This document shows, in pieces, positions 46,953-47,530 of a stretch of 64,000 nt of DNA. Both the position numbers and the translations under genes were made by a program. Source of the DNA: Candidatus Hodarchaeota archaeon (GTDB lineage: Archaea; Asgardarchaeota; Lokiarchaeia; Sigyniarchaeales; SOKP01); contig JBHLKM010000007.1 in NCBI GenBank assembly GCA_048886685.1, positions 32,001 to 96,000 on the forward strand, in the 5' to 3' direction. The first letter of the stretch is position 1, and each line of letters starts with the position of its first letter. A model generated the notes under the pieces. It was not told where the DNA came from, searched no databases, and worked only from the letters and a program-made list of their open reading frames with translations.

Positions 46953-47201
46953 TTACTCATATACCGAAAATAATCGGTACCTACCAACAAAAATAGAAGG
47001 ATAGTTCAAATCTATAAAAGGAAGAAAGTGCCCCGTGCCAACCGACGCAATTTAGCGCCTAAAAATCAATAGGGTAAGATTATAGAGTGTAATGAATTAC
47101 ACTACCAAAAGACAAAAATCCAGGGTGTAAGCATGGGGCATAGTTTAATTTCATTGTATATAGTATAAGACAAAAAATTCCTGTCTTCTAGTAATGAGTA
47201 A
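46953..47201 (+). ncRNA. Candidate structured non-coding RNA (core 47028-47141)
   Basis: 11-bp helix GTGCCCCGTGC/GCATGGGGCAT (two G-U pairs on +), internal hairpins, outer stem TTACTCAT/ATGAGTAA; no ORF. Confidence 0.5.
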
Positions 47202-47530
47202 GATATTTGATAATTTAAATTTCACATTTTTTCTTTATAAACAATCAGTTTAATAATGGTTGAAAATGAGATTGAGATCGAAAGAAAGAAAATCACACTA
47301 GATCATATTATGAAGAAGCATAAAAAACAGTAGCGTCAGATAATATTGAGCAAGCAATTGATTTAACCGAAAAATTAAAGTAATAAAGTCTAAAAAGTTT
47401 CTAGACACCTTATATTTTTTTACTGAAAATAATTGTCATGAGAATTAGTTGATTTTAAAAAAATAGATTATGATTAAAATTTAGAAATTTATAAGATTTA
47501 AAAACAGTAAAAAAAGATGAGAGGAGTAAA

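Follow-up and report, generated by a model that had tools for sequence, protein, structure and literature searches.

An uncatalogued family of structured small RNA genes in Loki-type Asgard archaea, with a possible docking site for an Sm-type protein

Introduction

Sm-class snRNAs (U1, U2, U4, U5, and U7) and archaeal RNAs bound by SmAP/LSm proteins are short RNAs bearing a single-stranded, stem-flanked element of the A-U-run-G type. The classical Sm consensus reads purine-A-U(4–6)-G-purine and is likewise single-stranded between stems. The Hfq-dependent sibling sRNAs of bacteria, of which Qrr1–5 are an example, are encoded by dispersed paralogues with unrelated neighbours and share an invariant single-stranded block within a conserved fold. 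The omega RNAs of TnpB/IscB and the bridge RNAs of IS110 are structured, occur in multiple copies, and have a scaffold that is conserved. No known organisms are more closely related to eukaryotes than the Asgard archaea; to our knowledge, almost nothing is known of their non-coding RNAs.

Here we describe a gene for a structured small RNA from a Lokiarchaeial genome and place it next to these systems. It represents a new, unannotated family of non-coding RNAs in Asgard archaea (Promethearchaeota), which lies outside all Rfam families. Our best joint reading, namely, an uncatalogued structured RNA gene with a P1-P2-P3 fold, probably transcribed from the minus strand and carrying a putative docking site for an Sm-type protein, is put forward as a tentative whole, whose parts are of unequal strength.

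Results

A small RNA gene with a three-helix fold

At positions 47014–47143, the window, that is, the whole stretch of 64,000 nucleotides analysed here, carries a stand-alone gene whose product is a structured small RNA about 115–130 nt long. Its parts and surroundings are given below, with the minus strand entered for the RNA as the probable one.

47014–47143, minus strand: small RNA gene; the covariance-model match spans 47027–47147 (contig 7: 79027–79147)
47141–47143 to 47014–47021, minus strand: putative ends if the RNA is read from this strand, with the start near 47141–47143 (AU before P1) and the end in a short U run at 47014–47021
~47026 to ~47150, plus strand: putative ends if the RNA is read from this strand
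47028–47039, minus strand: one arm of the terminal helix P1, partner 47131–47141; 9/9 modelled P1 pairs are doubly compensated in the family
47131–47141, minus strand: the other arm of P1, from its pairing and the compensatory changes in the family
47044–47059, minus strand: hairpin P2, 5 bp; one pair is A.C here on the plus strand, equivalent to G.U on the minus strand
47060–47085, minus strand: variable junction, purine-rich on the plus strand and C/U-rich on the minus strand
47086–47103, minus strand: hairpin P3, 7 bp; 7/7 pairs covary in the family
47104–47125, minus strand: invariant single-stranded block, ACCAAAAGACAAAAAUCCAGGG on the plus strand, U-rich with GGAUUUUUGUCUUUUGG on the minus strand
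47142–47255, strand not applicable: duplicated spacer including the hairpin 47167–47187, from a three-way alignment
47256–47333, plus strand: 25-codon truncated remnant of the 5′ end of a helix-hairpin-helix gene, from the alignment with the intact starts on contig 24 and in genome G017

The terminal helix P1 encloses P2 and P3, and two long unpaired junctions lie between the helices. In the window copy, P1 (47028–47038 with 47131–47141) consists of nine Watson-Crick and two G-U pairs when read on the plus strand. The variable junction is GGGGGAGGAGGG on the plus-type strand in most members of the family; the window copy is divergent at this place.

A BLAST search of the assembly of the source genome (4.4 Mb, 47 contigs) showed that the element has four dispersed copies. 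The copy on contig 24 is 97.5% identical to that of the window over 122 nt, and contigs 12 and 8 bear one copy each, matched by BLAST only over 40–68 nt. All four have the same architecture: the sequences of P1 and P2 differ and yet stay complementary. A further 19-nt BLAST match, found on contig 44, falls within unremarkable sequence and was rejected. Two covariance models were built, R1 from ten copies and R2 from 85 diverse copies. The window copy scored 135 bits with R1 (E ~1e-33) and 103 bits with R2, and all three helices and the invariant block are present in it.

The initial annotation of this locus had proposed a multi-stem RNA, the core of which was confirmed by the collection of 115 homologues. 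The GC-rich 11-bp helix 47028–47038/47131–47141 is present in the window and conserved with compensatory changes (our P1). The CGC/GCG hairpin is real and extends to GACGC/GCGCC, 47044–47048 with 47055–47059, being conserved in the homologues as P2, and the AGTGTAA/TTACACT hairpin (47086–47092 with 47097–47103) is present and conserved with compensation as P3. In addition, the 249-nt stretch around the element folds better than its dinucleotide shuffles, with z-scores of −4.48 for the plus and −4.32 for the minus strand. The remaining stems fared otherwise. The CCTA/TAGG hairpin is already gone from the nearly identical contig-24 copy. The outer shell, made of flanking hairpins and a closing 8-mer, proved to be copy-specific or at chance level and to lie outside the element: TACCGA/TCGGTA belongs to a flank common to no other copy; AAGACA/TGTCTT (47167–47187), located in the duplicated spacer, occurs only in the contig-24 copy and its G017 orthologue and shows no covariation; the 8-bp closure TTACTCAT/ATGAGTAA is seen in 15% of flanks after shuffling, and hairpins of 6 bp are seen in 10–28%.

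Helices drift and a single-stranded block stays frozen

The comparison across the family clearly showed that the three helices are maintained by compensatory changes. In an alignment of 85 sequences, which was fitted to the covariance model and hence favours pairing, all 21 modelled pairs display double compensatory changes, and standard pairs occupy 95.9% of the cells vs. 20–48% after a shift of the 3′ partner by 1–3 columns. None of 500 column shuffles reached the observed values. Compensatory P1 pairs were already visible in an unfitted MAFFT alignment of ten copies, and P1, P2, and P3 are all compensated across the 115 homologues.

While the helices drift, a block of 22–24 nt is unchanged in the ten-copy alignment and near-invariant in the 115 copies; in the source genome, it is found only at the four gene copies. 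A frozen single strand of this length amid freely changing helices indicates a conserved partner. The other junction behaves differently in two places: the contig-12 paralogue (L003, ~78077–78233) has an insert of ~30 nt in the purine-rich junction, which folds into hairpins of its own, and the copies of genome G081 carry a CCCC/GGGG hairpin within the same junction. Hence, the purine-rich junction tolerates an extra helix.

Distribution of the family

A search with R1 found the RNA in 47 of the 52 genomes of the genus and in 121/129 genomes of the taxonomic family, representing 12 of its 13 sampled genera, with 1–18 copies per genome at both levels. The sister-family genus g8 was positive in both of its genomes, and no copy was found in the remaining 17 genomes of the order. 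With R2, a phylum-wide sample gave matches in 24/24 family members and in 0/125 genomes from 26 other Asgard families. A targeted search recovered three to four divergent copies in the single-contig genome G081 (sister family) and found none in G031, G037, G029, and G032. These figures come from genome samples and are to be read as "not found in those searched" rather than as absence; as far as sampled, the family is confined to one Loki-type Asgard family and one sister genus.

An exact-motif scan of species-representative genomes returned more than 108 contigs, nearly all of them titled as Promethearchaeota/Promethearchaeia MAGs. Copies were also present on contigs L162, L191, L219, L165, L184, and L192, which carry the labels of Clostridia, Saccharibacteria, Patescibacteria, Thorarchaeota, and Odinarchaeota MAGs. 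Four of them (L165, L184, L192, and L219) score 86–120 bits and two (L162 and L191) only ~35 bits. Most likely, they are Loki-type contigs mis-binned into those MAGs.

The same kind of scan of IMG/VR gave four matches, of which only one resembles the RNA. It lies at positions 41–147 of the virus-classified contig L142 (IMGVR_UViG_3300029288_000001, 224,826 bp) and scores 48 bits (E 3e-11); P3 and the invariant block are present, P1 is weak, and P2 is missing. Six ORFs of at least 150 aa lie in its vicinity; in five of them Pfam recognizes nothing or nothing beyond a carbohydrate-binding module, and the sixth encodes an HNH endonuclease. Two other matches (L140:6073–6091 and L143:278–296) are exact 19-mers within an apparent proline/lysine-rich coding repeat (..PKDKNPDGTPP..), which we judged to be a low-complexity coincidence, and the last one is very weak (25.6 bits).

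Which strand is read

The initial annotation placed the RNA on the plus strand because of its G-U pairs. This holds for P1 of the window copy and fails in its P2 as well as family-wide, showing that a strand call made from the G-U pairs of one copy can mislead. We counted wobbles in unique sequences from the 115 copies, treating G.U and A.C alike in the helix definition and taking only mismatches located between Watson-Crick pairs:

P1: G.U on plus, 22; A.C on plus (equivalent to G.U on minus), 54
P2: G.U on plus, 3; A.C on plus (equivalent to G.U on minus), 29
P3: G.U on plus, 1; A.C on plus (equivalent to G.U on minus), 19

In total, 102 interior wobbles speak for the minus strand vs. 26 for the plus strand; the copies are related, so this overstates their independence, and a rough count by lineage gives ~2:1. 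Since both models had been built in plus orientation, any search bias would act against the excess on the minus strand. The consensus energies from RNAalifold for two alignments also favour minus over plus (−18.8 vs. −16.4 and −26.9 vs. −18.3). Several otherwise intact copies would need a P1 with three to four C.A mismatches on the plus strand, with a duplex of −7 to −13 kcal/mol vs. ~−23 kcal/mol on the minus strand; several such copies fold on plus no better than shuffles and well on minus (for L083, z is −0.4 and −3.7, respectively). The P1 duplex energies alone are mixed, 27 of the unique variants favouring minus and 10 favouring plus. In P2, a single substitution separates the window copy from that of contig 24; it produces A.C when read on plus and G.U when read on minus. 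Taken together, the wobble counts and RNAalifold point away from the plus orientation, and the RNA is probably read from the minus strand of the window.

The alternative keeps the same gene and helices and reads them from the plus strand. The product would then end at an oligo-T terminator and act as a structured RNP or as a decoy that binds C/U-rich partners, for example, the 3′ end of 16S rRNA; its junctions would be an invariant A-rich block and a G/A-rich, GGAGG-like block. Structured RNAs typically have unpaired regions rich in A. The flanks argue for this strand. A run of at least five T within 20 nt downstream follows 50% of the copies on plus and 13% on minus, with 36% of the 33 tRNA genes of the source genome as a benchmark; the downstream flank on plus is T-rich, like the tRNA trailers of this genome, and the upstream side on minus is unusually A-rich. 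Furthermore, a G.U-type closing pair just outside P1 on the plus strand is kept in 62/85 copies, and some copies (e.g., L052 and L092) have two to three G.U pairs on plus, in line with the G-U pairs in P1 of the window copy. Terminators and flank composition thus conflict with the wobble evidence, and this conflict remains. Promoter words add little: in a positional search, TATA-like words did not peak clearly at the expected distance for either strand; the minus strand has a weak TATA excess at 45–56 nt upstream, and on the plus strand a word resembling TTATAAAGG abuts P1. Given the interior wobbles, the mismatched P1 duplexes, and the consensus energies, we regard transcription from the plus strand as unlikely, though it keeps a substantial share of our doubt.

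Neighbouring genes and origin of the window copy

According to Pfam, the window copy has as neighbours the genes for a protein with a CoiA-type nuclease domain, a protein of 236 aa that matches no Pfam entry, and a membrane protein. The contig-24 copy lies next to genes for a helix-hairpin-helix protein (HhH domains) and a DEAD-box (hel308-like) helicase, the contig-12 copy next to a radical-SAM enzyme gene, and the contig-8 copy next to a gene for a MarR regulator. No conserved gene neighbourhood was found among the four copies.

A three-way alignment with G017 showed that the window copy arose recently from the contig-24 locus by segmental duplication. Copied along with the RNA were a spacer of ~110 nt and the opening codons of the helix-hairpin-helix gene; the other edge of the duplicated segment lies at most ~10 nt from P1. 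In the frame at 47256–47333 (MVENEIEIERKK...), a 19-nt deletion has taken out the original start region. The hel308-side copy is syntenic between the source genome and G017. As a result of the duplication, the window copy stands beside the nuclease gene by accident, and with unrelated neighbours at all four copies the partnership with the nuclease/"Whirly" pair suggested by the initial annotation is not supported.

Known families and other identities of the element

The statement that the locus matches no tRNA, 5S, SRP, RNase P, or riboswitch and may be a novel Asgard ncRNA stands, both searches that bear on it being empty: Rfam 15, whose families also include C/D and H/ACA RNAs, ribozymes, and HEARO, gave 0 matches at gathering thresholds in the whole 64-kb window, and ARAGORN found no tRNA. 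When E-values up to 10 were admitted near the site, Rfam returned only two chance-level matches in the flanks, one of 16.9 bits (threshold 37) and one of 11 bits (threshold 80). A full-text literature search found no description of such an RNA.

A repeat acting at the DNA level, be it a miniature mobile element, a recombination site, or a bidirectional terminator with hairpins working in DNA or in both transcripts, would account for the copy number varying from 1 to 18, the A-runs and T-runs on both sides, the wobble pairs on both strands, and the birth of the window copy by duplication. Against it, the terminal arms differ between copies and covary, whereas sites recognized by a transposase would be conserved; the genes beside the four copies include no transposase, TnpB, IscB, or recombinase; the paralogues are old and divergent, one of them syntenic with G017 as described; the family is near-universal in one clade; and the 4:1 strand asymmetry of the wobbles is not expected of a purely DNA-level element. 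Only the copies on contigs 7 and 24 are near-identical, and this pair comes from a segmental duplication that included a gene fragment. We therefore rejected a MITE or another mobile repeat and consider a DNA-level element in general very improbable. An omega RNA, a bridge RNA, or a tracrRNA was likewise rejected, since Pfam analysis of the neighbours revealed no cognate nuclease or recombinase adjacent to the four copies. Scarcely credible, finally, is a micro-ORF or a leader-peptide switch, in which the minus strand would open with AUG and a 14-codon frame would run through the invariant block. An AUG does stand at the start of P1 on the minus strand in most copies, followed by short open frames, 14 codons long in the window copy; 23 copies are without it, however, and the distance from AUG to the block varies between 18 and 22 nt, so that 50, 18, and 12 copies fall into three frames, differing among genera. 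The block is unchanged at all three codon positions, and the helices covary. A small protein or a leader peptide was rejected in the absence of a conserved reading frame.

Discussion

In this work, we provided evidence for a structured RNA that has very strong comparative support and is multi-copy and near-universal in one large Lokiarchaeial family. As to its function, the most economical model, and our leading idea from the sequence features, would be a small RNA that acts in trans and is held by a ring of the Sm type. Read on minus, the RNA has an invariant junction that is U-rich (GGAUUUUUGUCUUUUGG) and another that is C/U-rich. The U-rich block may be where a conserved protein docks, the most plausible candidate being a ring of the Sm type (SmAP/LSm), and the folded scaffold could expose the C/U-rich junction so that it pairs with purine-rich sites on other RNAs, for instance, those of the Shine-Dalgarno type. 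On this view, the paralogues would act as sibling regulators in trans or as scaffolds of RNPs. Were the RNA read from the plus strand, the blocks would be A-rich and GGAGG-like, which would call for the reverse of this model.

The candidate docking site is an A-U-run-G element placed between two stems, as in Sm sites. In the window, the minus-strand junction between P1 and P3 reads G-A-U5-G-U, the last position not being a purine, and this comparison presupposes the probable strand call. The UUUGUCU heptamer of the invariant block is presumably shared with the Sm site of U7. The source genome contains four LSM-domain genes, one of which adjoins the L37e gene, the usual placing of archaeal SmAP1; it also uses ribosome-binding sites of the GGAGG type, enriched 5–7 fold at −20 to −5. 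These genes and sites count toward a candidate partner and candidate targets as plausibility only. No long complementary target of the invariant block was found in the source genome, where a search allowing up to four mismatches gave only the four gene copies; this search covered an assembly without a 16S gene. Archaeal 16S rRNA indeed had no match in the 4.4-Mb, 47-contig assembly (completeness given as 100%), in which the rRNA operon evidently was left unassembled.

If an Sm-type ring is the partner, the origin of Sm-class RNPs becomes open to experiment. A bolder proposal, which we consider improbable, is that small RNAs with Sm sites form stable RNPs with Sm-type rings in Loki-type Asgard archaea, as the archaeal counterpart of Sm-class RNPs. 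If true, the eukaryotic snRNPs could have been recruited from such particles, and a related copy may sit on a large virus-like contig. Even without an Sm-type partner, the covariance model is ready for annotating hundreds of Asgard genomes.

Compared with the guide RNAs of mobile nucleases, the window family is alike in being multi-copy and structured around a conserved scaffold. Unlike the TnpB/IscB omega RNAs and the IS110 bridge RNAs, it has no adjacent cognate nuclease or recombinase gene at its four source-genome copies; HEARO and other Rfam models fail on the window RNA, and its copies are old and partly syntenic. With the Sm-class snRNAs and the archaeal SmAP/LSm-bound RNAs, it shares the short length, a candidate for the stem-flanked single-stranded A-U-run-G element, and the presence of Sm-type genes in the source genome. 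It differs from them in having neither a splicing context nor sequence or Rfam similarity to any snRNA, and in a candidate site ending with GU rather than with G-purine on the probable strand. In contrast to the Qrr1–5 RNAs, the window family is archaeal, has a larger three-helix fold with a terminal stem, and has only putative targets and a putative chaperone; just as these sRNAs, it comprises dispersed paralogues with unrelated neighbours, a conserved fold, and an invariant single-stranded block. By analogy, this RNA would work most like the Sm- or Hfq-dependent sibling small RNAs.
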